This document shows, piece by piece, positions 16,596-62,400 of a DNA stretch of 64,000 bases. The notes beneath the pieces were generated by a model. That model was not told the DNA's origin, searched no databases, and was given only the letters and a program-made list of their open reading frames with translations. The stretch spans positions 13,842-77,841 of the forward strand of contig CAZKVT010000004.1 in NCBI GenBank assembly GCA_964556365.1. The letters are read 5' to 3'. The position numbers were made by a program, and so were the translations under genes. The DNA comes from an uncultured bacterium (lineage in GTDB: Bacteria; Hydrothermota; UBA3072). The first letter of the stretch is position 1, and each line of letters starts with the position of its first letter.

Positions 16596-16774
16596 AATTA
16601 ATTCCTTTGAAGTTAATATACGAAAACGCCGATTTTATTCAAGATTCGTGTTATTTGTGCAATTTGTTGTTAAACATACTTTGTGTCTTTGTGCCTTTGT
16701 GTGAGATTAATCTGGGGTTATGGGTTGGATTTTAAACAACATTATCCCTTTCCCTTTGTGGGCTCCGTGTGAGA

Positions 16775-31549: not shown

Positions 31550-31620
31550 AGTCCAAAGTCCAACGTCCAATGTTCAAAGTCAAAGCTAAATCCCGACCCC
31601 CAAATCCGAAATCCTAAATC
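31550..31620. repeat. Degenerate heptamer array (AGTCCAA-type followed by AAATCC-type units)
   Basis: agtccaaagtccaacgtccaatgttcaaagtcaaag then ctaaatcccgacccccaaatccgaaatcctaaatc. Confidence 0.8.
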
Positions 31621-31700
31621 AGCCGTTCAACTATTCAACAATTTAACTATGACCCTCTACCGGTAAAAGTCATTATTGAACATTTAACAGGAGGTATATT

Positions 31701-32332: not shown

Positions 32333-32377
32333 CTAACTTTACACTTTTGTCCCGGACAAAAGTGTAAAGTTAGGGGA
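32333..32377. repeat. 45-bp palindromic element, copy 1
   Basis: Identical to 33280-33324; an inverted repeat with arms ctaactttacacttttgt / acaaaagtgtaaagttag. Confidence 0.9.
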
Positions 32378-33236
32378 GAGATTTGATGTTTTGGTGGATT
32401 GTTTGACGGGATAAATGAAGTAAATCTGCTATTTCGGTTATTGAGTTGCCGTTTGATATTAATTGTTCTATTAGATATTTTCTTGCTTTCTTTTCTTCCG
32501 GGTTTTTGATTCTCGAATTTTTTCTGAACTTTTCAATCATCTGATCGAACTCTGACATTTTTCTATTAATTCTAACCGCCCTAATCTTTACTTTTTCAAT
32601 GAATCGTTTTACTTTTTGAGCATCTATGAATCTTCCGCCTTTAATTTCCAATGATTGTCTTAGAAGTTCAGAATATCTCTTTCGCGCAATATTTGGGTTA
32701 TCGTCCAGCATCTTAAGTATTTTTTCATAGTTTACAAAGGTTTTTTTTGGGCTTTCTGTGTAAAGAGAAAGAGAGCTCCACCTGTATCTATCAAAATATT
32801 CTGTTAAACCGGCATTGTAAGGATTTAAATGTATATAGCAGGAAGCTGCAAGCAAATAATTGTCGTGATTGACAAGACTTGACCGGAATCTTCCGCAGAA
32901 AACGTGCCCCTTTCGCTTATACTTATAGTTGTAATACATTGCATATTTTCCGAAAAGTTCCTTCATTGCTTCGGATAGATTTCTTTCTTTTATCTGAAGG
33001 AGAAGATGGAGGTGATTTTCTAGAAGGGAAAAACAGAAAAGATTTAAATGAAATTTTTCAACCGTTTTTTTTAATTCTGAAAGGAATTTAAGATAGTCGC
33101 CGTTTTCCACAAAAACAATTTCTCTACCGGGTGCCCTCTGAGTTATATGGTATACTGCTCCTGGATACACGATCCTTTTTTTGACAGTTAAATAGCCGCT
33201 GATTTCCTGGGTTCTAATTTTCTCCAGTATTCTCAT
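32370..33236 (-). CDS. IS200/IS605-like (RAYT-type) HUH tyrosine transposase with a C-terminal helix-turn-helix
   Basis: The HUH motif HLHLLL, a catalytic Tyr in YIHLNPY, and VYHITQR near the N-terminus resemble the Y1 transposase (Transposase_17) family. C-terminal HTH (NSITEIADLLHLSRQTIHQNIK). Flanked by identical palindromes. Confidence 0.65.
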   Translation of the reverse strand: MRILEKIRTQEISGYLTVKKRIVYPGAVYHITQRAPGREIVFVENGDYLKFLSELKKTVEKFHLNLFCFSLLENHLHLLLQIKERNLSEAMKELFGKYAMYYNYKYKRKGHVFCGRFRSSLVNHDNYLLAASCYIHLNPYNAGLTEYFDRYRWSSLSLYTESPKKTFVNYEKILKMLDDNPNIARKRYSELLRQSLEIKGGRFIDAQKVKRFIEKVKIRAVRINRKMSEFDQMIEKFRKNSRIKNPEEKKARKYLIEQLISNGNSITEIADLLHLSRQTIHQNIKSLP

Positions 33237-33279
33237 AATTAATTGTACTTAATTATCGCCTTTTGTCAAATAATGCATT

Positions 33280-33324
33280 CTAACTTTACACTTTTGTCCC
33301 GGACAAAAGTGTAAAGTTAGGGGT
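33280..33324. repeat. 45-bp palindromic element, copy 2
   Basis: Identical to 32333-32377. Confidence 0.9.
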
Positions 33325-34482: not shown

Positions 34483-34519
34483 AGTCCAACGTCCAAAGTC
34501 TATAGTCCAAAGTCAGAAC
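34483..34519. repeat. Degenerate heptamer array (AGTCCAA-type)
   Basis: agtccaacgtccaaagtctatagtccaaagtcagaac. Confidence 0.8.
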
Positions 34520-45882: not shown

Positions 45883-45908
45883 GAGGTCAGTAACACAGGC
45901 ATAGCAAA

Positions 45909-45947
45909 GTTAAATAGTTGAATAGTTGAATTGTCCACCCAACCCAT
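45909..45947. repeat. Degenerate 8-mer array (TAGTTGAA-type)
   Basis: gttaaatagttgaatagttgaattgtccacccaacccat. Confidence 0.6.
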
Positions 45948-47778: not shown

Positions 47779-49233
47779 TTATTCTTTTATCCTGTACAAT
47801 ATAAACTCGGCCCGTCTGTTTTTGATTCTGCCTGCTTCTGTGTTGTTGGTCGCTATAGGATTTGTTTCTCCGTAACCTTCTATGCTGATTTTTTCCGGAA
47901 GTATGCCTCGTCCTATCAGATATTTTTTTACGCTTTCTGCCCTTTTCTCCGATAGCTTCTGGTTGGCTTCGTAGGTTCCCAGGGAGCAGGTATGTCCGAT
48001 AATCAGCAGACGAACATCTTTGTTGTCTCTTATAAGTTCGATAATTCTATTTAATATGCTGAGCGCTCTCGGGGTAAGGTCGGCTCTATTTAAAGGAAAT
48101 CTTATGCTTATTCCTTCTACCTGGTCTTTAATTTCTTCGAAATTATCTATTATCCTTACAGAATCTGCAGCTGTCACAGGCTTTTTTTGTTCTTCTATTT
48201 TACTTAGTTCTATAGTGTAAAGATTTTTACTTGTTCCTCCTTTTACCGCCATCGCGATTTCTTTGTCTTTATATCCCGCAGCGGAAATAAATGAAGTGTA
48301 AATTCCGGGTTCCAGTTCTAAGGAATGAATGTTTTTTTCAAAAGAAGATGCTTGAATGGTATCTCCTTTCATGCTGGTTATTGTTGTGTATCCTTTTACA
48401 GGTTCTCTGTTTTCTTTATCTATAAGTTCGATTGATACAGGGAATTTTTTTACTAATTTTTCAACTGTCTCCTTCATATCCATTAATTTATAGGATAGAT
48501 TAAGACTGACACGCGGAGAGAGTTCATCTTCCGAACCGAATAGTTCTAATTTATTCAAAGCCATTGTGCCTTTTACAAGTTCATTCTGATATTCTATGCC
48601 AACGTTCGCGTCTCTGCCGTCCGTTTCCACAATAAAAGCTAAATTATTGGGGAAGGTTACTTTTGTCCCTCCGAAAAGACCGACAGCCCAGTTTTCATGA
48701 TTCTCGTCGAAGAAAATGTCGGTATTGGGAACGTAACTTTTCGGTCCGTACCCTACAAATCTTCCCCTGCCTATCCCTCCGGTCAATTCAAAACTTTTAC
48801 CAAATTTTTTTGTTCCGACGATATATGCTGAGGCAATTTCCGGAGGTCTATCCTCATAATCTTCATCATTAAAGGTTTCTTCCGAACCCGCGGGAGAAAT
48901 GTACTGGTTGATAGCGATCTCCGCGAGTCCTATGGCAAGACCGGGAGCACTTTCGTTCTCGGCGAGAATCTGGTAAGACAAGTCCATGGCAAAATCGACG
49001 CCGTCGTACCACTTTACGGCAATGCCGAATTTATTATACGAGAAATCTATTCCTATATTAGGATCGAATTTAACGTCCGTTACATCCATGACCGGATAGC
49101 TCGAACTCACATTGACGTAAAGCCCCTGAGTAAAATTGGCTGTAGGCATATCTATATAAGCTTCTCTTTTCATTTGGAAAGCATTAACCGCAATTGATAC
49201 TACAAATAATAAAGCAAAAAATAAATTTTTCAT
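47779..49233 (-). CDS. OmpA-family protein: unknown N-terminal domain plus a C-terminal peptidoglycan-binding OmpA-like domain (paralog A)
   Basis: Signal peptide; OmpA_C motifs (LLIIGHTCSLGTYEANQKLSEKRAESVKKYL ... NRRAEF); AAGGGGGTGA RBS. Confidence 0.75.
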   Translation of the reverse strand: MKNLFFALLFVVSIAVNAFQMKREAYIDMPTANFTQGLYVNVSSSYPVMDVTDVKFDPNIGIDFSYNKFGIAVKWYDGVDFAMDLSYQILAENESAPGLAIGLAEIAINQYISPAGSEETFNDEDYEDRPPEIASAYIVGTKKFGKSFELTGGIGRGRFVGYGPKSYVPNTDIFFDENHENWAVGLFGGTKVTFPNNLAFIVETDGRDANVGIEYQNELVKGTMALNKLELFGSEDELSPRVSLNLSYKLMDMKETVEKLVKKFPVSIELIDKENREPVKGYTTITSMKGDTIQASSFEKNIHSLELEPGIYTSFISAAGYKDKEIAMAVKGGTSKNLYTIELSKIEEQKKPVTAADSVRIIDNFEEIKDQVEGISIRFPLNRADLTPRALSILNRIIELIRDNKDVRLLIIGHTCSLGTYEANQKLSEKRAESVKKYLIGRGILPEKISIEGYGETNPIATNNTEAGRIKNRRAEFILYRIKE

Positions 49234-49260
49234 AGTTTATCACCCCCTTATACAAACAAT

Positions 49261-49288
49261 TTTATAGAGGATATGTCTTTTTGTCAAC
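49261..49288 (-). promoter_or_regulatory. Sigma70-type promoter (TTGACA-16-TATAAA on the minus strand) for OmpA paralog A
   Basis: -35 complement tgtcaa at 49283-49288; -10 complement tttata at 49261-49266. Confidence 0.4.
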
Positions 49289-49657
49289 CTAGATTAGAAT
49301 TTTTTTTGAAAAAAACCCATTTTACCGCAGAGACAAAAAGAACGCAGAAAAAAATTTTTAAGCCACGAAACACACTAAATCCCGCTACTCCTTTTGAATG
49401 TGTGTTTTAAAAAAAACACTAAAATAATGCTAATTCGATAATCGCGGCTGGGAAACCGCTCCCACATTTTTCTTTTTATTGTAGGAAGGATTTCTCTACC
49501 CTGTGGAATAAGAACTCAACATACAATGACTTCTATTATATTTGGAAAGTGCTGAATAAAAACGTAGGGTTGGGGTTTATTCCCAACAATCTATGTGCGA
49601 GGGATGAACCCCCGCGTTACTAATTTACGAATTTCCTGACTTGAAGAATCTATAAAG

Positions 49658-51115
49658 CTATTCTCTCGACCTTTTTACTATGAGTTCAGCTCTTCTGTTT
49701 CTTATTCTGCCTGCTTCCGTGCTGTTGTCCGCGAGAGGTTTTGTTTCTCCGTAAGCTTCCGTGCTGATTTTTTCAGCGGGTATGCCTCGTCCTATAAGAT
49801 ATTCTTTGACGTTTCCTGCTCTTTTCTCGGATAGCTTTTGGTTGAATTCATAGCTTCCGATATCGCAGGTATGTCCTATAATTAGTAGATTAATGCCTTT
49901 ATCGTTTCCTATTAGTTCGACTATTCTATCTGAGATGCCGTATGCTCTGGGGGTAAGTTTGAACTCTCCTAAGGGGAATTTTATGCTTATTCCTTCTACC
50001 TGGTCTTTAATTTCCTCGAAATTATCTATTATCCTTATGGAATCTTCAGCTTTTACAGGCTTTTTGGGTTCTTCTATCTTGTTTAGCTCTATAGTGTAAA
50101 AGTTTTTACTCGTTCCTCCTTTAACCGTCATCTCTATTTCTTTATTTCTATATCCTGCGGCTGTAATGAATGAAGTGTAAAGCCCCGGTTCCAGTTCGAA
50201 GGAATGAATGTTTTTTTCGAAAGAAGATGCTTGAATGGTATCTCCTTTTATGCTGGTTGTTGTTGTGTATCCTTTTACAGGTTCTCTGCTTTTTTTGTCT
50301 ATCAATTCAATCGCGACGGGAAATTCTTTCTTTTCTATCTCTTTAACCCTTTCCTGAAGGTTCGTCATCTTGTAGGATAGATTAAGACTAACACGAGGAG
50401 AGAGTTCATTTTCCGAACTGAAAAGTTCGAGTTTATTTAAAGCCAATGTGCCTTTTACAAGTTCATTCTGATATTCTATTCCAACATTCGCGTCTCTGCC
50501 GTCCGTTTCCACAATAAAAGCTAAATTATTCGGGAAGGTTACTTTTGTTCCTCCGAAAAGACCGACAGCCCAGTTTTCATGGTTTTCGTCGAAGAAAATG
50601 TCGGTATTGGGAATATAACTTCTTGGTCCGTAACCGACGAATCTGCCTCTGCCTATCCCTCCGGTCAATTCAAAACTTTTCCCCATCTTTTTTGTTCCTA
50701 CGATGTATGCCGATGCAATCTCCGGGGGTCTATCCGTATAGTTTTCATCGTTGAAAACATCCTCGGAGCCCGCGGGAGAAACATATTTACTGTTGGATAG
50801 TTCTGCGATTCCTATGGCAAGACCGGGAACGCTTTCGCTTTCCGCGAGAATCTGGTAAGATAGGTCCATTGCAAAGTCTATCCCGTCGTACCACTTTACC
50901 GCCATCCCAAATTTGTTATAAGAAAAATCTATTCCTATGTTAGGATCGAATTTCACGTCATCCACATCTTTAATCGGATAACTCGAACTCACGTTAACAT
51001 AAAGCCCCTGGGTAAAATTAGCTGTAGGCATATCTATATAAGCTTCTCTTTTCATTTGGAAAGCATTAACCGCAATTGATACTACAAATAATAAAGCAAA
51101 AAATAAATTTTTCAT
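49658..51115 (-). CDS. OmpA-family protein, paralog B (tandem duplicate of 47779-49233)
   Basis: Identical first 47 aa and high identity throughout to paralog A at protein and DNA level; OmpA_C motifs (LLIIGHTCDIGSYEFNQKLSEKRAGNVKEYL ... NRRAEL). Confidence 0.75.
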   Translation of the reverse strand: MKNLFFALLFVVSIAVNAFQMKREAYIDMPTANFTQGLYVNVSSSYPIKDVDDVKFDPNIGIDFSYNKFGMAVKWYDGIDFAMDLSYQILAESESVPGLAIGIAELSNSKYVSPAGSEDVFNDENYTDRPPEIASAYIVGTKKMGKSFELTGGIGRGRFVGYGPRSYIPNTDIFFDENHENWAVGLFGGTKVTFPNNLAFIVETDGRDANVGIEYQNELVKGTLALNKLELFSSENELSPRVSLNLSYKMTNLQERVKEIEKKEFPVAIELIDKKSREPVKGYTTTTSIKGDTIQASSFEKNIHSFELEPGLYTSFITAAGYRNKEIEMTVKGGTSKNFYTIELNKIEEPKKPVKAEDSIRIIDNFEEIKDQVEGISIKFPLGEFKLTPRAYGISDRIVELIGNDKGINLLIIGHTCDIGSYEFNQKLSEKRAGNVKEYLIGRGIPAEKISTEAYGETKPLADNSTEAGRIRNRRAELIVKRSRE

Positions 51116-51142
51116 AGTTTATCACCCCCTTATACAAACAAT

Positions 51143-51169
51143 TTTATAGAGGATATGTCTTTTTGTCAA
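51143..51169 (-). promoter_or_regulatory. Duplicated copy of the OmpA-paralog promoter (TTGACA-16-TATAAA on the minus strand)
   Basis: The same 60-bp upstream sequence as 49234-49290 (atcacccccttatacaaacaattttatagaggatatgtctttttgtcaacct). Confidence 0.4.
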
Positions 51170-51252
51170 CCTAAATTAGCGTTTTTTTAAAAAAACCTAA
51201 TTTCACCGAGGAGATACAGGGAAACAGGTAGATGTGTAAATGGGTAAAAAAA

Positions 51253-51330
51253 CAGTCAACCCATCTACCCATACACCCATCAACTCATTCACTACTTTAC
51301 CGATTCACTGCTTCCTGATTCGGAGAACCC
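51253..51330. repeat. Degenerate heptamer array (ACCCATC / CATTCAC / CTGATTC units)
   Basis: cccatctacccatacacccatcaactcattcactactttaccgattcactgcttcctgattcgg. Confidence 0.55.
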
Positions 51331-51336
51331 GATATC

Positions 51337-51365
51337 CGATATCTAAAAAAATCCCCTTGACAAAT
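51337..51365 (+). promoter_or_regulatory. Conserved promoter module (A-tract + CCCCTTGACAAA -35 element), copy 1
   Basis: ccgatatctaaaaaaatccccttgacaaa is near-identical to 52856-52886. A TATATT -10-like hexamer follows ~16 nt after TTGACA. Confidence 0.4.
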
Positions 51366-51428
51366 TTGGAAAAATGATTATATTACTTTATATAACAAAG
51401 TTCTTTGGAAAAACAAAAGGAGGGAACA

Positions 51429-52697
51429 ATGAAAAAATTAGTTATTTTAATGTTATTTGCAATAGTAGTTTTCGCGCAGGAAGCAGTGACAAAGGTCAAT
51501 CTCGATCGTAGAGCCGAAAGTAATCTTGTTACTCTTTTCGAAAAATTGCCTCAGAATATCGAAGTATTTGTTACTTCTGACAGTATCTATATTATCGAGG
51601 CTGCTTATCCGGGAAGCAAGATAATAAAAAAGTTGACCGCTTCCGAATACCGAAGTCTGATTGTGAGAATCCCGTCCGAGAGGGTAATCCTCGAAGACGC
51701 GCAATTGCCTTATGTGATAGGGCAGACTATTCATGGAATCTCTCTTTATTCCTGGAGTATGCCTTTAGCTTTGGGGATGGATGGGGAAAGCGCTGTGTCT
51801 ATGGGGCTCTTAATGCCGCTTTTGTATTCCACCGGAAGCTATTTAGTTACTAAAAATATACGTGTTAGCGGCGGGGCTGCCTATGGCTCATTTTTGGGCG
51901 GTATCGAAGGAGCGTGCCATGGAGGTATGTTCTTTGAATCTGAGGAAGCCATTTTCCCGGTGAGCCTTGGGGAAAATGTTCTGGATTTTGCTTTAGCTCA
52001 GAAGATGGGGTTGACTTCAGGAATGTATCAGAGGAAGTTTAATCATTGTGCGTATGGTTATTACCATTACGCGGCTTTAAAAGCCTTAGTTCTTTCAGAT
52101 GATTGGGATGATTGGGGTAACACGGATGAGTTTTTGCAGGTTTCCACTTTGCTTTCTTTAGGTGAGGGATATACATCTCTTTTTCTTTCGAGGAATTCAG
52201 AAGACCTGACTTTAGGGGACGCTCTTTTTGAGCTTCGGGCCAGTTTGTTGGGCGCTGAAGCCCTACCTTTAATTCTCATGACTTATGATCTACATCGTGA
52301 GGAAGCTTCAGACGCGCGTATTTACGCGGCTCTTTCTTTGGTCGGGCACGGCGTAGGTTATTTGTTGGGAAACAAACTCAGCAGAGATTATGATCTCTCC
52401 GGTTCCGGAGGTGTGATGATCTGGCTGCTTCCGTATCTCGCGCATGGTGCAACGGCGGCTATTATGGCGAAGACTGATAGCGAAGGGCTTTGGAATTCTT
52501 ATCCTGCTATATTCTTGTCGATGGATGTTATTATGACTTACGCGTACTATAAGGCTTTATCCAAAAAGCCCTTAAAGATGGGAAAGGCGGATGCGCCCCA
52601 TTTTAATATGGCATTAAATCCTATGAGTTTAATATGTAAAGATAAGAATAAAACCTTTGAAAACATGCCTTTCTTGATGTTTTCATATGAATTTTAA
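51429..52697 (+). CDS. Hypothetical secreted/membrane protein rich in Gly/Ala/Leu, 422 aa
   Basis: Signal peptide MKKLVILMLFAIVVFAQEA. The ATG at 51429 has an AAGGAGGG RBS; the track uses a TTG at 51405. Several hydrophobic segments; no known domain recognised. Confidence 0.45.
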   Translation: MKKLVILMLFAIVVFAQEAVTKVNLDRRAESNLVTLFEKLPQNIEVFVTSDSIYIIEAAYPGSKIIKKLTASEYRSLIVRIPSERVILEDAQLPYVIGQTIHGISLYSWSMPLALGMDGESAVSMGLLMPLLYSTGSYLVTKNIRVSGGAAYGSFLGGIEGACHGGMFFESEEAIFPVSLGENVLDFALAQKMGLTSGMYQRKFNHCAYGYYHYAALKALVLSDDWDDWGNTDEFLQVSTLLSLGEGYTSLFLSRNSEDLTLGDALFELRASLLGAEALPLILMTYDLHREEASDARIYAALSLVGHGVGYLLGNKLSRDYDLSGSGGVMIWLLPYLAHGATAAIMAKTDSEGLWNSYPAIFLSMDVIMTYAYYKALSKKPLKMGKADAPHFNMALNPMSLICKDKNKTFENMPFLMFSYEF

Positions 52698-52747
52698 TTC
52701 TCAGACAGAAAAAGAAACTAATTATCAAGAAAGACACAGAGGATTTT

Positions 52748-52851
52748 AGTCCAGTGTCCAAAGTCCAATGTCTTTTCCATTTTTTTATATCTGGTCCCGT
52801 TGATATGTTCTAATTCATAATTCATAATTCAAACTTCAAAATTCTTAATCC
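52748..52851. repeat. Degenerate heptamer arrays (AGTCCAA-type, then TAATTCA-type) left of the AbiE cassette
   Basis: tagtccagtgtccaaagtccaatgtc then ctaattcataattcataattcaaacttcaaaattcttaatcc. Confidence 0.8.
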
Positions 52852-52855
52852 TAAA

Positions 52856-52886
52856 CCCGGTATCTAAAAAATTCCCCTTGACAAAG
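52856..52886 (+). promoter_or_regulatory. Conserved promoter module (A-tract + CCCCTTGACAAA), copy 2, upstream of the AbiE cassette
   Basis: cccggtatctaaaaaattccccttgacaaag; compare 51337-51365. Confidence 0.4.
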
Positions 52887-52948
52887 CCCAATTAATTCAT
52901 AAACTAATAGTAATAATAATTATTACTTCTGGTTTATGGTAGGTGGAT

Positions 52949-53512
52949 ATGAAAAAAAATAGGGATTTTATTTTGAATTTATATAGTTCTAAAAGTACCG
53001 TTTTTACGATAGATGAAATAGCTTTGCTTTTGGGAGATTTAAATCGTGATAATCTGAAAGCGAGAATAAATTATTACGTTAAAAGAGGAAAATTGTTAAA
53101 TCTGAGAAAAGGGGTTTACGCGAAAAGAGGGTATAGCCCTTTAGAGCTCGCGGTTAAAATTTTTACTCCTTCTTATATCAGTTTAGAGACTATTCTGGAG
53201 AAGGGGGGAGTGATTTTCCAAAAATACGAAACTATCTTTGTTGTTTCTTATCTAAGCAGGAAAATCGAAGTTGACAGCCATAAATTACAATATCGTAGAA
53301 TAAAAGAGGAAATATTGATAAATAAAGAAGGGGTAGAATTAAAAAAAGGATATGCTATAGCAACAAAAGAGAGGGCATTTCTCGATGCTTTGTATTTATA
53401 TAAAGACTATTATTTTGACAATCTCGATATTTTAGATAAAGATGTTGTATTGAATATGGCTAACATTTATCAGTCGAAAACTCTTAAAGAAAAAGTCGAA
53501 GGGCTTATATAA
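52949..53512 (+). CDS. AbiEi-family antitoxin / transcriptional regulator (type IV TA)
   Basis: The PSYISLETILEKGG motif (AbiEi_4 family) and an N-terminal winged-helix-like region; separated by 1 nt from the downstream nucleotidyltransferase. The start may be the GTG two codons upstream. Confidence 0.6.
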   Translation: MKKNRDFILNLYSSKSTVFTIDEIALLLGDLNRDNLKARINYYVKRGKLLNLRKGVYAKRGYSPLELAVKIFTPSYISLETILEKGGVIFQKYETIFVVSYLSRKIEVDSHKLQYRRIKEEILINKEGVELKKGYAIATKERAFLDALYLYKDYYFDNLDILDKDVVLNMANIYQSKTLKEKVEGLI

Positions 53513-53513
53513 T

Positions 53514-54209
53514 ATGCTTAATATTCAGAAACATAAATATATACTGGTTCAAATTTTAAAAAGTGTCTATTCCGATAAAGGTGTTTCTTCAGTTATTGGT
53601 TTTAAAGGAGGAACCGCGGCGTATCTTTTTTACAATTTGCCAAGGTTTTCCGTCGATCTTGATTTTAATCTTTTGGAATCCGCAAGGAATGATTTAGTCT
53701 TTGAACGGATGAAAGATATTCTTAAAAGTTATGGTAATGTTAAAATCGCGAGAGAAAAGAGGTATACGATATTCTTTTTGCTTTCCTATGGGGAAGAGGC
53801 GACTAATATAAAAATAGAGATTTCAAAAAGAAAATTCCCCGATAATTATGAGGTAAAAAATTATCTCGGAATTCCAATGTTAGTAATGAAAAAGAGAGAT
53901 ATCTTTGCCCATAAGTTTGTTGCTTTCCTGGATAGAAAAAGTATAGCGAACAGAGATGCTTTTGATTTATGGTTTTTCTTTAATGGGAACTGGCAAATCA
54001 ATAAAGAAATAGTGAAATTAAGAACCGGTAGAAAGTTCGAAGATTATTTAAAAAATTGTATCGAAGCGGTAAAGGGGATAAATGATACATATATATTACA
54101 GGGTCTTGGTGAGGTGTTAGAAGAGGAGCAAAAAAACTGGGTAAAAAACAATCTCAAAAAAGACTTGATCTTTTTAATGAGGAATTATCTTGAATCTAAT
54201 GTTCAATAA
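53514..54209 (+). CDS. AbiEii/AbiGii-family nucleotidyltransferase toxin
   Basis: The FKGGTAAYLFYNLPRFSVDLDFN motif matches the GGTAL ... RFSEDLD nucleotidyltransferase signature of AbiEii. Confidence 0.7.
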   Translation: MLNIQKHKYILVQILKSVYSDKGVSSVIGFKGGTAAYLFYNLPRFSVDLDFNLLESARNDLVFERMKDILKSYGNVKIAREKRYTIFFLLSYGEEATNIKIEISKRKFPDNYEVKNYLGIPMLVMKKRDIFAHKFVAFLDRKSIANRDAFDLWFFFNGNWQINKEIVKLRTGRKFEDYLKNCIEAVKGINDTYILQGLGEVLEEEQKNWVKNNLKKDLIFLMRNYLESNVQ

Positions 54210-54288
54210 CGTCCAAGTCCGATGTCTTTTCCGACCCAACGACCCCACGATCTAACGAACCAACGAATCAGTCCAATGTCTTTAACCC
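54209..54288. repeat. Degenerate heptamer array (GTCCAA / CCAACGA units) right of the AbiE cassette
   Basis: acgtccaagtccgatgtcttttccgacccaacgaccccacgatctaacgaaccaacgaatcagtccaatgtctttaaccc. Confidence 0.8.
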
Positions 54289-54458
54289 AAAAAAGACAAA
54301 GTCTTAATCCGCATCCCGGAAATTTAAGGGTCTGAATATCGATTGTTTTAAACATCCGATAATATCTGAACTCTTAAGAATCAAAAATGACTATTAAGAC
54401 TTTGTTAGTTTAAAGGTCTTTAGTTATTCTATAAACCTTGTATTTCAGAAAATACTTG

Positions 54459-55132: not shown

Positions 55133-55392
55133 TATTTTCCTCCCATTTTATTATTAGGATTTCCAAAAGATTTTTCCAAAGGGATTTCTTCTAAACATTA
55201 CAAATTTATATTTTACCGAAATACACTAAATCCCTATAAAGCGATTCCAGAAAAAATTAGGGACATTTTTAGTAGATACTATTTTAGTAGATACTACATT
55301 AATAACAACCCTACACCATTAATATAAGTGTTTTTAGCTATTTGTCAACCCACCCCGCCTTAAAACACTCATATGGAGAACACAGAGAACTT

Positions 55393-55429
55393 TAGTCCAA
55401 TGTCCAAAGTCCAGAGTCCAAAGTCAAAA
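55393..55429. repeat. Degenerate heptamer array (AGTCCAA-type)
   Basis: tagtccaatgtccaaagtccagagtccaaagtcaaaa. Confidence 0.8.
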
Positions 55430-55680
55430 TTTAAAACTCAAACTTGCTTTTATACTAATCCTTGAGTCCCAAACTTTAACAAACCACAGATTCCACAAGA
55501 TTAGCTCAATATTTTTCTTAACCGCTAAATACACGGGGAAACCAACTTAGTGAAGGTACTAAATCAGGAAAAAAGAATTAATCGTACGGTAAAGTACTTT
55601 ATTCCCAGTGATACATTGACAAATTTAGCGTTTTGTTTATGTTAAACGATGAGTAAAACGAATAGGGTTGATCTGTTTAT

Positions 55681-56918: not shown

Positions 56919-56990
56919 TAGTCCAATGTCAATAATCGTTAGATCGTTAGGTCGTTGGATTGTTAGATCGTTAAAAAATCCGAATCAACT
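56919..56990. repeat. Degenerate arrays (AGTCCAA, then GATCGTTAG 9-mers)
   Basis: tagtccaatgtcaataatcgttagatcgttaggtcgttggattgttagatcgttaaaaaatccgaatcaac. Confidence 0.8.
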
Positions 56991-57040
56991 AAAAATTGCC
57001 ACAGATTAACACGTATATGCGCGGAGGTTTTTTGTTGTTT

Positions 57041-57076
57041 TGACTGATGACTCGTGACTGTTGACTAACGACTCGG
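57041..57076. repeat. TGACT-type degenerate array
   Basis: tgactgatgactcgtgactgttgactaacgactcgg. Confidence 0.6.
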
Positions 57077-57168
57077 TTATATATTTGACCATTCAACTTA
57101 GGTTCAAAGAATCACAACCTGGGACCCATAGCTTAGCAGTCCGTGTTTTTGACGCATGTAGGTGTAAA

Positions 57169-58407
57169 TTAAAGAAGGCTCCAGGGTACCGCGAGTATTT
57201 TATCTCCGAACTTTTTAGCTTCCTTGCCGGCATGAATAAGAATAGCGCTTTTAGTATCCGGGTATTCGCCCATAAAATATCTGAGACCTTTTGTATCTCC
57301 ATAATTGGGAGAATCGGTTAACTTTACTTCAATCGCGATTTTCTCCTTGCCGTATTCAATTACAAAATCGACTTCTTTTTGGTTTATTTCTCTGTAGTAA
57401 TGGATTTTACCTTTTGGGACCATCAGTTCACAAAGCACGTTTAAGTGCAAAAAAATCAAATTTTCAAAAAATCCCCCCAATTCTCTTGCTTTTTTAAGGC
57501 TATCTGAATTGTAGTAACCGGAAAGAAAAACCGCTAAAGCGGGATCTACCCAGTAAACTTTAGGAGATTTTATTATTCTTTTTGTTCTATTAGGAAAGAA
57601 AGGCGTGATTTTTGTAATTATATGTCCGATTTCCATTAAGTTAATATACCTGTATACAGATGGTTGGCTTACTCCGGAATCTCTGGCAATCTCGGTTTGG
57701 TTTATTAGATTTCCTGTTCTCAAAGCGAGCATTTCCATGACTTTTCTAAAATCGGTTAGCGACGATATATTGGAAATATTTCTCAAGTCTCTTTCCATAT
57801 AAGTGGCGACATAGCCTTCCCACCATCTTAGAATATTTTCTGAGTTTTTCATATACATAACCCGCGGCATAAACCCTTTAAGCATAAAGGAGATAGGGTC
57901 TATTGGTTTATAATTCTTTTCTTTAGGAAATTTACCCTTAAAGAGATCTACGAACCACTGAGGTCGTGATTCTTCCGCCATTTCTCTTCGAACCATAGGA
58001 TTAAGAATTAAATAAGCGGCTCTTCCGGCGAGAGTTTCAGAGATTTTATTCATTAATAACATATTGGCCGAACCGGATAATATGTACTTGCCTTTACCTT
58101 TATCTACATTTAACTTTATAGCTTCTATCAAACCTTTTTCTTTCTGGACTTCATCGATTATGAGTTTATTGTAATTCGATATTAAGCCTACAGGGTCTTC
58201 TTCGGCTTGTTCCAGGACATCGAAATTGTCGAGAGTTAGATATTTCCAATCGTCGGACGAAAACTCATTTTGTAAAATAGTACTTTTCCCAACCTGTCTT
58301 GCCCCCGTTAGAATAACAACAGGAATTTCTTCGATAACGGTTTTTAGAATATTACCAAGATATCTATCCTTGTATTTCCATTTAGACTGTGAATAATATT
58401 TATTCAT
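57169..58407 (-). CDS. AAA+ ATPase (AAA_14 + DUF4143 family)
   Basis: Walker A VVILTGARQVGKST; the DUF4143 C-terminal region (YWVDPAL ... GGFFENL). The M at 58407 gives the typical ~37-aa lead before the P-loop. Confidence 0.65.
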   Translation of the reverse strand: MNKYYSQSKWKYKDRYLGNILKTVIEEIPVVILTGARQVGKSTILQNEFSSDDWKYLTLDNFDVLEQAEEDPVGLISNYNKLIIDEVQKEKGLIEAIKLNVDKGKGKYILSGSANMLLMNKISETLAGRAAYLILNPMVRREMAEESRPQWFVDLFKGKFPKEKNYKPIDPISFMLKGFMPRVMYMKNSENILRWWEGYVATYMERDLRNISNISSLTDFRKVMEMLALRTGNLINQTEIARDSGVSQPSVYRYINLMEIGHIITKITPFFPNRTKRIIKSPKVYWVDPALAVFLSGYYNSDSLKKARELGGFFENLIFLHLNVLCELMVPKGKIHYYREINQKEVDFVIEYGKEKIAIEVKLTDSPNYGDTKGLRYFMGEYPDTKSAILIHAGKEAKKFGDKILAVPWSLL

Positions 58408-58719
58408 TACCTGAATAATAATACAAATATTTAATTTGTCAAGTATTTGAATCATCAGGCGGATGATTAGTTATTAGTTAATTTGCAAATTAGTTTATTA
58501 GTAAAAGTCTCGACCCAACTGAAGAATTGAATCGCAGATTATCACAAGATTTTTTTATTCTTTACCGTTAGCAGTCAGCTGAAAGTTATTTTGTCAGATT
58601 ATAGAAAATATAATTTTTGTTTTGATTTTTTTGAACACATATACGCTTTTACGCTTATACGCATTTACTTTGCGTAGAAATTACCTCCTAACTCTCTAAC
58701 CCTCTAATTTTCGATTTAT

Positions 58720-59559
58720 TTATCTTTTATATTCTTTGATATCAAACTTATCTAAAAATGCATTCACTCTTTCGTAAGCGTCTCGTATAATACGTTCCCG
58801 CTCTTCGGAATCATCTATTTCCAAAAATTCCGCAACCCAAACGGGACCTGGGGATTCAAAACTCTTAAATTTTTTTCTTATTTTACCGAGTCCTTCTTTA
58901 ACCAGTTTATTATTTATTATTGGTTTAAATTCTTCAGCCAGTTTTTCAATACCTCCCGGATAATTCTTTATAACAAAATATATGTCATAGGCATCCTTTT
59001 CTTTATATCTACTTTCAATTGCCATTCCTTTCATTGATAAAAAAGGTATTATACTGGAAATATTGATTTCAATTTGATTTTTCGCGCCATCTGGCATTTT
59101 TGCGGATATTTTAGTACTGATTTTATATAAAAATGCTAAATCGCATCCTCTGGCTTTTCTTGCTCTAATATCCTGAACTCGCTGAGTTCGATGAGAAGAA
59201 CCGGTTCCACCATATTCCGCGGCGAGTAAATCGATTTCAATATCCATTTCTTTTCCCGAGGTGTTTTTATATTTACGGTAAAAAATAAAAGGTTCTCTAC
59301 CTTGGGCATAGCCATGGGTTTTTAGAAGTTTGAGAATTGTACTGTAAGTGTTGTCTGTGATATTTTCAAAATTAAGAGCAATATCAATATCCAGACTACC
59401 CACATGCTCTTTACCTTTATTCCCGAGAAGAAAATAAGGTATCCAGCCGCCAACCAGCACAATGTTTTCCTTGAATTCTCCGAGTATCGTGAGAAGTTCA
59501 ATTAAAACAGATAAACAGGCATTTACTTCTTCTTTTTGATAGTCCGATTTTTTTACCAT
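58720..59559 (-). CDS. Nucleotidyltransferase of the AbiEii/DUF1814-like family (putative toxin)
   Basis: The LVGGWIPYFLL ... GSLDIDIAL motif fits the GG ... DLDL nucleotidyltransferase signature. Its ATG overlaps the upstream gene stop (ATGGTAA), suggesting translational coupling. Confidence 0.55.
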   Translation of the reverse strand: MVKKSDYQKEEVNACLSVLIELLTILGEFKENIVLVGGWIPYFLLGNKGKEHVGSLDIDIALNFENITDNTYSTILKLLKTHGYAQGREPFIFYRKYKNTSGKEMDIEIDLLAAEYGGTGSSHRTQRVQDIRARKARGCDLAFLYKISTKISAKMPDGAKNQIEINISSIIPFLSMKGMAIESRYKEKDAYDIYFVIKNYPGGIEKLAEEFKPIINNKLVKEGLGKIRKKFKSFESPGPVWVAEFLEIDDSEERERIIRDAYERVNAFLDKFDIKEYKR

Positions 59560-60623
59560 TTTGTCTCCAGGCGCTTTTCTTTTAGAAATTCTGCCGCTTC
59601 TTCACCGCGTTGTTTGTAATCTTTTAGATCTAAATAAAGTTGGATGTTAGAGACGACTTTTAAGCCATTAAAATCCTGTAATCCATAAAATATTCCGGAA
59701 TCATAGGGAGACAGTATTGAAATATTCGCTCCTGTCGAGACTTTTTTCCATCTTAAATTGTTAGCAATAGATTCTATAGAATCTTCAGCATACGCAAAGA
59801 CCTTATTATATCTCAAAAAAGGTGCTATTCGAGAAGCCCCTGATGTAAGTGTTAAAGCATATCGTATATCATTGGAATCGCAAAAGTTCGCGAGATTGTT
59901 CTCGATAGTGTCAATATCATCCAAGGAGTAATAGTCAACAGAATTATTTTTCTTATATGAATAATTTTTGACCCAGCGGTCCAATAAGGATTCCGGATTG
60001 CTCAGGTAGAATTTTTGAATATCAGATTTCTCAATATAATTATATTCCTCGAGTCTCTTTTTTACTTTTGAGACTAAACCTATACTGACTTCAGCTTCCC
60101 TGGAAAGATCTTTTACATACCATTTTCTACCTGGATTGTCCAGGAGAATACGTACTATTCTTGACGATTTTTTAGAAAATATAGACTTAATTGAGCGGTT
60201 TTCCGGATATGGGTTTGGGTTACCTTTGATATTTATATAGACCCCGTTAAAAGATAGGAGACAGTTTCCCGCCAGGTCGATATACCCAATGTTGTTTAAT
60301 TCGCATATTTTTTCCGATTCTTCTGAAATATATGGAGATCCAAAAATACCATAGATTTTGTCTCTCCCTCCAATTATTTCCTGAAGTTGGTTGGCTGCCA
60401 TCCTGACATATTTCGGCAGTCCGATAGTTTTTATTTCAAAAATCAAAGTATATTTATCTTCGCCTTGTGTCTTAATGACATATACGAGATCGGACTCCTT
60501 ACTACCCGAGAAAAGTGGTTCCCGTATTCGTTCGCTTATGGCGCCGGGTGATATCAGACCGGTTTTCGTCACAATATCTCTAAATGCCTCTTCGATCTTC
60601 ACAATTATTTCTTTTTCTTCCAT
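59553..60623 (-). CDS. Putative cognate regulator/antitoxin (356 aa) with a central winged helix-turn-helix
   Basis: The HTH-like segment WYVKDLSREAEVSIGLVSKVKKRLEEYNYIEK. The upstream region carries two palindromic operators GTTTCACC-N4-GGTGAAAC. Operon with the nucleotidyltransferase. Confidence 0.4.
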   Translation of the reverse strand: MEEKEIIVKIEEAFRDIVTKTGLISPGAISERIREPLFSGSKESDLVYVIKTQGEDKYTLIFEIKTIGLPKYVRMAANQLQEIIGGRDKIYGIFGSPYISEESEKICELNNIGYIDLAGNCLLSFNGVYINIKGNPNPYPENRSIKSIFSKKSSRIVRILLDNPGRKWYVKDLSREAEVSIGLVSKVKKRLEEYNYIEKSDIQKFYLSNPESLLDRWVKNYSYKKNNSVDYYSLDDIDTIENNLANFCDSNDIRYALTLTSGASRIAPFLRYNKVFAYAEDSIESIANNLRWKKVSTGANISILSPYDSGIFYGLQDFNGLKVVSNIQLYLDLKDYKQRGEEAAEFLKEKRLETKW

Positions 60624-60644
60624 TTTTGTTTCACCTATTTTTAA

Positions 60645-60728
60645 GTTTCACCATTTGGTGAAATATATTAAATATTGATAATATGTCAAGTGTTTCATTT
60701 TAAAAAACGTTTCAACGATTGGTGAAAC
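60645..60728. promoter_or_regulatory. Two palindromic operator-like sites (GTTTCACC-N4-GGTGAAAC) upstream of the regulator-nucleotidyltransferase operon
   Basis: gtttcaccatttggtgaaa at 60645-60663 and gtttcaacgattggtgaaac at 60709-60728, plus half-sites at 60627-60636, 60690-60699 and 60739-60748. Confidence 0.5.
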
Positions 60729-60857
60729 GCAATTTTTTGGTGAAACTTTCCTTAAACTATAAATCTCCGGTTTTTAAAATACCCCCCATAAAGCAAGCTT
60801 CTTTTTATAATCGATTGCTATTTAACGCGGGATTTTTTGCTGTTTTTTTAATTTAAG

Positions 60858-60911
60858 CCCAATAAACCCAACGAACTCAACGAAACCAATAAATCCAATC
60901 AACCAATTAAC
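60858..60911. repeat. Degenerate heptamer array (CCAAYGA / CCAATMA units)
   Basis: cccaataaacccaacgaactcaacgaaaccaataaatccaatcaaccaattaac. Confidence 0.7.
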
Positions 60912-60953
60912 TTTCTCCGTTCTTGGACTCGGAACTCGGCACCCAGAACCAAA

Positions 60954-62340
<1,387 letters not shown>

Positions 62341-62361
62341 TTTGTCTCTCTAAATTTATAA

Positions 62362-62390
62362 CTAAATCCTAAATCCAAAATCCTAAATCC
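62362..62390. repeat. Heptamer array (TAAATCC-type), inverted relative to 61933-61963
   Basis: ctaaatcctaaatccaaaatcctaaatcc is the reverse complement of ggatttaggattttggatttaggatttag. Confidence 0.85.
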
Positions 62391-62400
62391 TGCTAATACG

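Follow-up and report, generated by a model that had tools for sequence, protein, structure and literature searches.

An AbiE toxin-antitoxin cassette between generic heptamer arrays in a variable interval of an uncultured WOR-3 bacterium

When a small defence operon lies between direct repeats, do the repeats record its insertion at a specific site? The question is raised by a two-gene AbiE toxin-antitoxin module in a 64,000-nt stretch of DNA from an uncultured bacterium (contig CAZKVT010000004.1; the whole stretch is hereafter the window), which a sequence-only reading, made from the letters without database searches, had described as a cassette bounded by two 24-mer direct repeats and consistent with site-specific insertion. 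We find the observation itself to be correct, although too much was made of it as a signal: the cassette is inserted relative to other species, while taking the 24-mers as the mark of site-specific integration is wrong. What flanks the cassette is a non-coding module found across the clade, present here in three local copies, which are neither att sites nor transposase target duplications. Our best explanation as a whole, an AbiE cassette in a variable hot spot with generic arrays as its flanks and recombination between arrays as its mover, is one that we consider an even call. Related loci and strain contigs are referred to below by L numbers.

The cassette and its immediate surroundings consist of the following parts, in which arrays were detected with Tandem Repeats Finder (TRF):

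52806-52854, plus strand: TAATTCA heptamer array (52811-52849; TRF) and AATTCTTAAT, AbiE-linked, upstream of the promoter
52855-52905, plus strand: sigma-70 promoter of abiE from a promoter scan, with an A-tract, CCCC, a -35 TTGACA (52878-52883), a 16-nt spacer and a -10 TAAACT (52900-52905)
52909-52927, plus strand: putative AbiEi operator, AGTAATAA-TAA-TTATTACT, also found as an inverted repeat
52949-53512, plus strand: abiEi, antitoxin/repressor gene, 187 aa, with an alternative GTG start at 52943
53514-54209, plus strand: abiEii, DUF1814 nucleotidyltransferase toxin gene, 231 aa
54232-54266, plus strand: octamer array CGACCCAA/CGATCTAA/CGAACCAA (TRF)

The identification of the two genes was borne out by PADLOC and Pfam. 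AbiEi and AbiEii both have full-length PADLOC matches (E 7.5e-68 and 3.1e-78, respectively), AbiEii matches Pfam PF08843 (E 6.8e-19), and the N-terminus of AbiEi has a weak, below-cut-off match to Pfam AbiEi_4 (E 0.008); with the full-length PADLOC match and this weak Pfam match, AbiEi belongs to the AbiEi-family antitoxins with an N-terminal winged-helix domain. Read against the published definitions of the DUF1814 motifs (I-II, hG[GS]x~15DhD with an Arg; III, a Lys in hydrophobic context; IV, +DxxD; PMC3985639), the AbiEii translation holds all four, with motifs I-II as KGG-x14-DLD with the family-specific Arg (KGGTAAYLFYNLPRFSVDLD), motif III as KFVAFLDR and motif IV as RDAFD. The antitoxin gene comes first and is separated from the toxin gene by 1 nt (end 53512, start 53514), and this order and abutting arrangement are seen in all relatives with AbiE. 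The segment 52949-54209 is an intact, self-contained type IV AbiE toxin-antitoxin/abortive-infection operon. It adds a WOR-3 representative to a known family, one whose putative operator is sharply delimited and conserved.

In known systems, the abiE promoter is repressed by AbiEi itself, acting through inverted repeats (PMC3985639, PMC7319586). By analogy, AbiEi would bind the palindrome at 52909-52927: AbiEii would act as a DUF1814 nucleotidyltransferase toxin, and AbiEi would neutralise it and repress the operon, probably through the operator AGTAATAA-N3-TTATTACT just downstream of the -10. Alignment of the abiE promoters of five contexts shows that CCCCTTGACAAA and TAAACY are conserved, and that the 8-nt half-sites of the putative operator are invariant, whereas the 3 nt between them vary. 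The same five-way alignment overturned another reading of the operator, as showing a compensatory symmetric change. That the cassette brings its own copy of a conserved promoter module (TTGACA-16-TAAACT) was likewise upheld, with 27 of 29 positions of 52857-52885 identical to the promoter module of the upstream 422-aa membrane-protein gene (51336-51364, plus strand). The latter module differs in strain L050 in the part upstream of CCCCTTGACA.

How far does the cassette reach, and has it moved? Across five WOR-3 contexts, conservation of AbiE is limited to the stretch from the -35 element through the stop codon, and we found no conserved sequence beyond these two points in the five contexts and no shared att-like core. 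Individual comparisons extend the limits somewhat. The region 52806-52854 is conserved with the upstream region of AbiE in L007 and is replaced by other modules in L053, L057 and L058, with the sequences rejoining at 52855; on the other side, the octamer array 54232-54266 is conserved with the downstream flank of AbiE in L007, L054 diverges from the window directly after it (~54266), and it is probably the right end of the cassette. Read in reverse complement, the same array corresponds to the ATCGTTAG array at 56935-56973. The cassette comprises the operon and its own promoter, ~1.4 kb, from ~52806/52855 to ~54266.

Gene order around the cassette differs among relatives, as listed here with arrows for the direction of transcription (CSD, cold-shock-domain gene; GT, glycosyltransferase gene; MTase, methyltransferase gene; T9SS, type IX secretion system; 420aa to 423aa, the membrane-protein gene by its length):

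Window: 422aa-AbiE-CSD-FKBP-GT
L183: 423aa-CSD-FKBP-AbiE-GT, with 423aa -> <- CSD directly adjacent, an empty site
L193: 423aa -> <- CSD <- FKBP, no AbiE at the locus
L191: 422aa -> GT, no AbiE at the locus
L188: 420aa -> <- MTase, no AbiE at the locus
L007: AbiE on the other side of FKBP-CSD
L179: AbiE between the gene of a T9SS protein and HEAT-repeat genes
L186: AbiE directly after yceG

Orthologous AbiE operons (74-83% amino acid identity; AbiEi 75-81% in L007, L183, L179 and L186) thus occur in at least five different contexts, and the empty sites that the sequence-only reading had proposed to look for exist, in relatives that retain this backbone without AbiE between the 422-aa gene and CSD (L183, L193) or GT (L191, L188). 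From these differing gene orders we therefore conclude that the interval from the 422-aa gene to GT is a hypervariable hot spot for small, promoter-bearing, operon-sized units, which in different species and strains include AbiE, CSD-FKBP, a methyltransferase and extra OmpA copies. The 422-aa neighbour itself has homologues only in "candidate division WOR-3" records.

Within the species, the same AbiE adjoins CSD-FKBP in ten strain-level contigs, all from sediment metagenomes. From 52855 to ~54540 these contigs show 1 to 3 differing positions, whereas third codon positions differ by 4.7-12.8% for the 422-aa gene, by 11-13% for GT and by 5.8% for the PDC-S01 ATPase gene; the stretch 52780-52854 shows ordinary strain diversity. 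Identity among the strains comes in mosaic blocks, the mark of frequent homologous recombination, and the present AbiE allele looks to have spread recently through the species by recombination. An apparent excess of conservation in intergenic over coding DNA was rejected as an artefact of this block-wise mosaic ancestry, the whole AbiE-CSD-FKBP block being near-identical among strains.

Could AbiE instead be ancestral at this position, with the other species having lost or moved it and its low diversity reflecting a recent local sweep or a recombination tract? The divergence of AbiE from its L183 counterpart (74-81% amino acid identity) tracks that of the backbone (68-83% for the 422-aa gene, GT and FKBP, 90% for CSD and 54% for OmpA), linkage to CSD-FKBP is found in three species (the window, L183 and L007), and the mosaic identity blocks would suit a recombination tract. 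We nevertheless hold an ancestral position here to be distinctly unlikely: the three closest relatives by the 422-aa gene (L188 at 84%, L191 at 78% and L193 at 75%) all lack AbiE at the locus, and the AbiE genes, with a GC content of 30-31%, lie ~7 points below the window mean of 37.9% (standard deviation 3.9). Taken together, the divergence, strain and gene-order data suggest that AbiE has long resided in the clade and has changed position within it.

If the cassette changes position, what are the repeats at its borders? The copies and their closest companions are these:

52748-52779, plus strand: repeat copy 1, AGTCCAG TGTCCAA AGTCCAA TGTCTTTTCC, containing the left 24-mer (52756-52779)
54211-54234, plus strand: repeat copy 2, the right 24-mer, starting 2 nt past the abiEii stop
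54269-54306, plus strand: repeat copy 3, CAGTCCAATGTCTTTAAC (54269-54286) joined to a small hairpin AAGAC-ttt-GTCTT and a T-run
52729-52790, plus strand: element 3' of the 422-aa membrane-protein gene, a predicted hairpin GAAAGACA...GGATTTT/AAAGTCC...TGTCTTTT followed by seven T, with the AGTCCAA array as its loop
55380-55432, plus strand: best partner of the left array, ACACAGAGAACTTTAGTCCAATGTCCAAAGTCCA..., in the divergent FKBP/GT intergenic region

The similarity of copies 1 and 2 is genuine, with an ungapped core of 17/18 (52761-52778, AAGTCCAATGTCTTTTCC, versus 54215-54232, AAGTCCGATGTCTTTTCC) and 22/24 over the 24-mers with one 1-nt gap. The core can be written as GTCCAAAGTCCRATGTCTTTTCC; the exact 14-mer AGTCCAATGTCTTT occurs at 52762 and again at 54270, and a 16-mer gives 5 matches at up to 3 mismatches where 0.77 are expected from shuffled sequence. 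The statement that each repeat sits within an AGTCCAA-type array is right for the left copy and needs qualifying for the right one, where there are only ~2 AGTCCAA-like units and the array is mainly of a different octamer, CGACCCAA/CCAACGAA (54232-54266). Copy 2 lies within the block that is identical among strains, and at copy 3, which had gone unnoticed in the sequence-only reading, the hairpin and T-run read as the terminator of CSD on the minus strand.

Copy 1 has a history of its own. L188, which has no AbiE there, carries an orthologous AGTCCAA array directly 3' of its 420-aa gene. At the corresponding position 3' of the L183 orthologue lies a compact hairpin, AGAAAAGAC-agttcaaa-GTCTTTTCT. 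Because of these two counterparts we conclude, by comparison of the loci, that copy 1 is a native element of the upstream gene's end, older than the presence of AbiE here; the element at 52729-52790 that contains it is a predicted terminator.

More generally, the repeats belong to a family of AGTCCAA heptamer arrays, often ending in GTCTTTTC, with members at 31550, 34483, 52748, 54211/54270, 55394 and 56921, all on the plus strand. The family is present in 6 of the 29 intergenic regions of the window and also flanks the housekeeping CSD-FKBP operon and the GT gene. In an all-against-all comparison of the 29 intergenic regions, the pair formed by copies 1 and 2 ranks ~23rd, with a score of 15, and is outdone by pairs such as 52734/55380 (34 nt) and 34483/55394 (33 nt); the best partner of the left array, at 55380-55432 (87% over 39 nt, score 25), lies in the very FKBP/GT interval where L183 carries AbiE. 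A metagenome scan with the 14-mer AGTCCAATGTCTTT returned almost entirely chance matches, L166 being the sole informative one; this locus, which is unrelated and belongs to another organism, has an array ending in TGTCTTTTC with 90% identity over 40 nt. The composite of AGTCCAA array, GTCTTTTCC and CTAACGA array seen at copy 2 recurs at L050 5171. That the repeats might be members of an abundant family is what the sequence-only reading had named as telling against itself, and it is what we find.

These results bear directly on an integrase/att route, integron- or genomic-island-like, as that reading had implied. A defence operon that has its own promoter and lies between direct repeats, with empty sites in relatives, fits such a route, which we nevertheless judge very improbable. 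Pfam detected no integrase or recombinase among the genes scanned (~45-64 kb), and the only transposase in the window, a Y1/IS200-like gene at 32370-33236, lies 20 kb away and is unrelated in position. There is no conserved core at the cassette ends in the five contexts. Other AbiE copies are not bounded by the same 24-mer: the L179 copy lies between direct repeats of another family (39 nt, 95%), the L007 copy has CTYTGTG arrays as its direct repeats, some copies have no flanking repeats at all, and the flanks of L007, L183, L179 and L186 share no common core. Nor are the arrays specific to the borders of the cassette, being found also at CSD-FKBP, GT, 31550, 34483 and unrelated loci, and neither relatives of the AbiEii protein nor the repeat core turned up on viral contigs. 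The cassette also lacks the terminal inverted repeats and the transposase of a transposon, unlike the insertion sequence (IS) found in L050 and L054. What stands of the proposed insertion is a compact, low-GC cassette with its own promoter, a varying position and empty sites in relatives; a site-specific insertion marked by the 24-mers does not stand.

The IS just mentioned is present in L050, L052 and L054, inside the octamer array at window position 54250, just downstream of abiEii. It encodes a 520-aa DDE transposase (DUF772 / DDE_Tnp_1 / DDE_Tnp_1_6), has inverted ends cagactgtgtgaaaaccc and is bordered by a 4-bp duplication of its target, ACGA; beyond the IS, L054 has a gene other than CSD. 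Its positions are:

L050, 10738-10850: IS
L052, 6961-7070: IS
L054, 892-2540: IS

Alternatively, the repeats might be the scar left by the insertion. On integration, ~23 bp of target sequence (GTCCAAAGTCCAATGTCTTTTCC, where the hairpin downstream of the 422-aa gene ends) might have been duplicated, either as a long target duplication or through Campbell-type integration of a circle with one copy. In L050-type strains the right copy keeps an extra A, which raises its match with copy 1 to 23/24, and there it starts 1 nt past the abiEii stop; with copy 2 beginning 1-2 nt past the stop in the two strain types and being followed by CCAAC-type arrays as in the right half of the L183 empty site, and with the exact 14-mer at 52762 and 54270 bracketing a block shared with L007, such a duplication is a lesser rival that deserves mention. 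We find it improbable, as 27-76 nt of ordinarily diverse sequence (within 52780-52854) separate copy 1 from the left edge of the conserved low-diversity cassette, no other AbiE copy carries the repeat core, and equally good matches exist in unrelated loci. The single AGTCCAA array after the L188 420-aa gene and the single GTCTTTTC hairpin in L183 come from other species and concern a generic module, and fit a site-specifically integrated cassette as well as one set among generic arrays.

How generic the arrays are becomes apparent from the window as a whole. Its non-coding DNA is packed with degenerate 7-8-nt tandem arrays (TRF and reading of all intergenic regions), with 24 of the 28 arrays of this period lying in the 12.5% non-coding part (p = 2e-18). 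The units include AGTCCAA, CACARAG/CTYTGTG, ATCGTTAG/CTAACGA/CCAACGAA, AAATCC, TGACTCG, TAATTCA, ACCCATC and ACCYGGT, to which 10-nt units of the CACAGATTAT type are to be added. Units of the same kinds are found in other WOR-3 species (L007, L008, L166, L179, L183, L188 and L193), and distant members of one family are often 95-100% identical over 20-33 nt (e.g., 10891/15458 and 10900/58535). Tandem 7-8-nt units of several types, non-coding, dispersed and common to relatives, the arrays have the properties of mosaic repeats of the short tandemly repeated repetitive (STRR) kind. Examples are:

16679-16702, 31550-31650, 34483-34514, 45908-45931 and 51227-51343: arrays, intergenic mosaics
56935-57066, 58466-58707, 60865-60911 and 62362-62391: further arrays, intergenic mosaics

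Two functional readings of the arrays were rejected. As Rho-utilisation sites they would be C-rich on the sense strand behind genes, and the C-G skew of the intergenic regions does not consistently follow the gene ending there (counter-examples, 60624-60953 and 62341-62400); a tie between array orientation and replication direction was dropped as well, since GC skew follows gene orientation and shows no switch. Rfam and tRNA scans of the window gave no matches.

Strain comparison shows that the arrays are not static. Variation among the ten contigs lies upstream of AbiE, and small indels sit in tandem-repeat arrays, CCGATAT and ACCCGGT as single 7-nt units and GTTAATTTG as 9 nt; within the species, new arrays are arising and existing ones are gaining or losing units. 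Single-heptamer gains and losses include ACCCGGT, duplicated in L050 and L055 (window 52855), GGACCCA/GGACCCG in L057, and CCGATAT, lost in L049 (window 51329). Larger changes are seen too. L003 lacks 49309-52748, that is OmpA2 and the 422-aa gene, with the junction exactly at the left edge of the AGTCCA array, and in L053, L057 and L058 the stretch from AGTCCAATGTC to 52855 is swapped for other modules, with junctions at AGTCCAATGTC and ACCCRGTATC and with one swapped-in module 96% identical to window 57038-57113. The 422-aa gene is absent from some strains and is itself flanked by direct AGTCCAA arrays in L050.

Do the arrays then move the cassette, or do they merely surround it? In the explanation that we prefer, the cassette would move by RecA-type or slipped recombination between short, co-oriented arrays: cut out between the arrays on its two sides and inserted again at an array elsewhere, it would end up with an array copy at either end. 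We favour such homology-driven recombination because four intergenic regions in a row within the hot spot hold AGTCCAA arrays (P = 0.015), because these arrays bound each of its variable units (the 422-aa gene in L050, AbiE, CSD-FKBP and GT), and because of the L003 junction and the array partner at 55380-55432. The module swaps in L053, L057 and L058, the indels within tandem arrays and the direct repeat around AbiE in L179 speak for it as well. Strong direct repeats join adjacent intergenic regions in 5 of 28 pairs and distant ones in 13 of 378 (p = 0.005).

The main rival is coincidence: all intergenic regions would draw on one shared array kit, the arrays would play no part, and ordinary rearrangement or horizontal transfer would move the cassette. 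The non-coding concentration of the arrays, the ~23rd rank of the copy 1/copy 2 pair and the near-identity of distant family members all agree with coincidence, which is hard to square with the clustering of AGTCCAA arrays in the hot spot, the L003 deletion junction at an array edge and the direct arrays around the 422-aa gene in L050; we regard it as quite possible, though we doubt it. Several further observations weigh against recombination between arrays. The evidence for this mechanism is circumstantial, and the arrays are so common that breakpoints and flanking repeats coincide with them anyway. The AbiE copies of L183 and L186 have no flanking repeats. Once inverted matches are included and the OmpA-paralogue and Y1-palindrome pairs left out, the adjacency enrichment is largely gone, at ~3/26 versus 21/378 in a hand count without a formal test, an excess that is unlikely to be significant. 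The hairpin fold at 52729-52790 is no better than that of shuffled sequence (z = -0.63), the similarity of copies 1 and 2 and the start of copy 2 at the stop codon are also expected of an insertion duplication, and all comparisons rest on metagenome assemblies.

A bolder form of array recombination can be stated, in which the clade-wide mosaic vocabulary of 7-8-nt arrays (AGTCCAA, CACARAG, CTAACGA/CCAACGA, AAATCC, TGACTCG and others) would serve as integrase-free portable junctions that excise and re-insert promoter-bearing operons, defence and housekeeping alike. We think this rather unlikely; if true, it would explain hot spots such as the interval from the 422-aa gene to GT, as well as the direct repeats around AbiE in three of its five contexts.

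The neighbourhood of the cassette holds further features. Downstream, the following minus-strand genes form, together with AbiE, a small defence cluster interleaved with housekeeping genes:

57169-58455, minus strand: PDC-S01 AAA_14/DUF4143 ATPase gene (PADLOC, 8e-102)
59553-60623, minus strand: first gene of a second, divergent AbiE-like pair, Pfam AbiEi_2 (2e-14)
58720-59559, minus strand: second gene of that pair, weak AbiEii match

Another gene, at 61972-62340 on the minus strand, encodes a 122-aa 23S-rRNA-intervening-sequence/bAvd-like four-helix protein, lies between two sugar epimerase/dehydratase genes and is bracketed by inverted heptamer arrays (GGATTTG x4.4 at 61933-61963 and CTAAATC x4.3 at 62362-62391). 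The Y1 transposase unit, at 32333-33321, consists of a gene (32370-33236, minus strand) for a 288-aa Y1_Tnp (IS200-like) protein with a helix-turn-helix domain and of a perfect 37-nt palindromic sequence, CTAACTTTACACTTTTGTCCCGGACAAAAGTGTAAAG, on both sides; it resembles an IS200/IS605-type or RAYT-like unit. Its palindrome is absent from all other fetched loci, and we found no link between it and the arrays.

On the minus strand at 55133-55350, the FKBP-CSD promoter and a ~190-nt leader are strongly conserved in five WOR-3 species. The leader contains a 15-nt repeat present twice, TTTTAGTAGATACTA (55267-55296), showed no covariation by RNAalifold, and may be a cold-shock-type regulatory leader. 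Its counterparts are:

L007, 3718-3936: FKBP-CSD leader
L008, 3455-3672: FKBP-CSD leader
L183, 4902-5112: FKBP-CSD leader
L193, 2568-2790: FKBP-CSD leader

Upstream of the 422-aa gene, 47779-51188 holds two tandem OmpA-family paralogues of 484 and 485 aa, whose promoters and 5' untranslated regions (UTRs) are identical over 58 nt (80 nt at ~94%; 49234 versus 51116). Strains have one or two copies, with recombinant versions in L003, L053 and L057. The promoter and 5' UTR of the 422-aa gene (51357-51428), with a palindrome AACAAAGTTCTTTGG, are conserved at L008 5340-5425, where they precede a non-homologous 259-aa membrane-protein gene; this regulatory module appears to be common to unrelated genes.

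For the interpretation of similar loci, our results carry a caution: where repeat modules are dispersed through non-coding DNA, direct repeats around a defence operon are no evidence of site-specific integration. Of wider interest is an uncultured phylum with mosaics of intergenic arrays, strain-level module swaps and single-unit changes in copy number, together with a hot spot that reshuffles small operons and a defence cassette that is near-invariant across otherwise diverged strains. If the arrays mediate the reshuffling, they would provide a recombinase-independent route to cassette mobility and defence-island assembly.

Among known systems, the cyanobacterial STRR sequences consist of degenerate heptamers in tandem, come in several sequence types and are scattered through the genome, solely in non-coding DNA. 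The WOR-3 arrays are like them in all these respects and differ in their units and phylum, and in that array types are strung into mosaic modules with strain-level swaps; in the literature searched we found no description of the WOR-3 intergenic arrays. Mosaic modules of short repeats are also known from the bacterial interspersed mosaic elements (BIMEs) of enterobacteria and the Neisseria intergenic mosaic elements (NIMEs) with dRS3, which are intergenic, often follow genes and are hot spots of recombination and rearrangement. BIMEs and their repetitive extragenic palindromic (REP) units are palindromic and linked to RAYT transposases. The WOR-3 modules share with BIMEs and NIMEs the mosaic combination of short intergenic repeats, whereas, unlike REP units, they are built of tandem 7-8-mers and are mostly non-palindromic. 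Compared with integron cassettes and att-flanked islets, the locus has in common a small cassette, variable positions and border repeats; it differs in that the cassette has its own promoter, with no attC-like structured site and no integrase, and in that the border repeats are generic and differ between contexts. The operon itself resembles the AbiE systems of Streptococcus agalactiae and Lactococcus (Dy et al. 2014, PMC3985639; Beck et al. 2020, PMC7319586) in its two genes, abiEi and abiEii, set 1 nt apart, its DUF1814 toxin with motifs I-IV, its two-domain AbiEi and an inverted repeat in the promoter region consistent with autorepression, and differs from them in its putative operator, a single AGTAATAA-N3-TTATTACT palindrome downstream of the -10. 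The AbiE part of the locus is thus ordinary, and the array system and the hot spot are the parts that deserve separate study.

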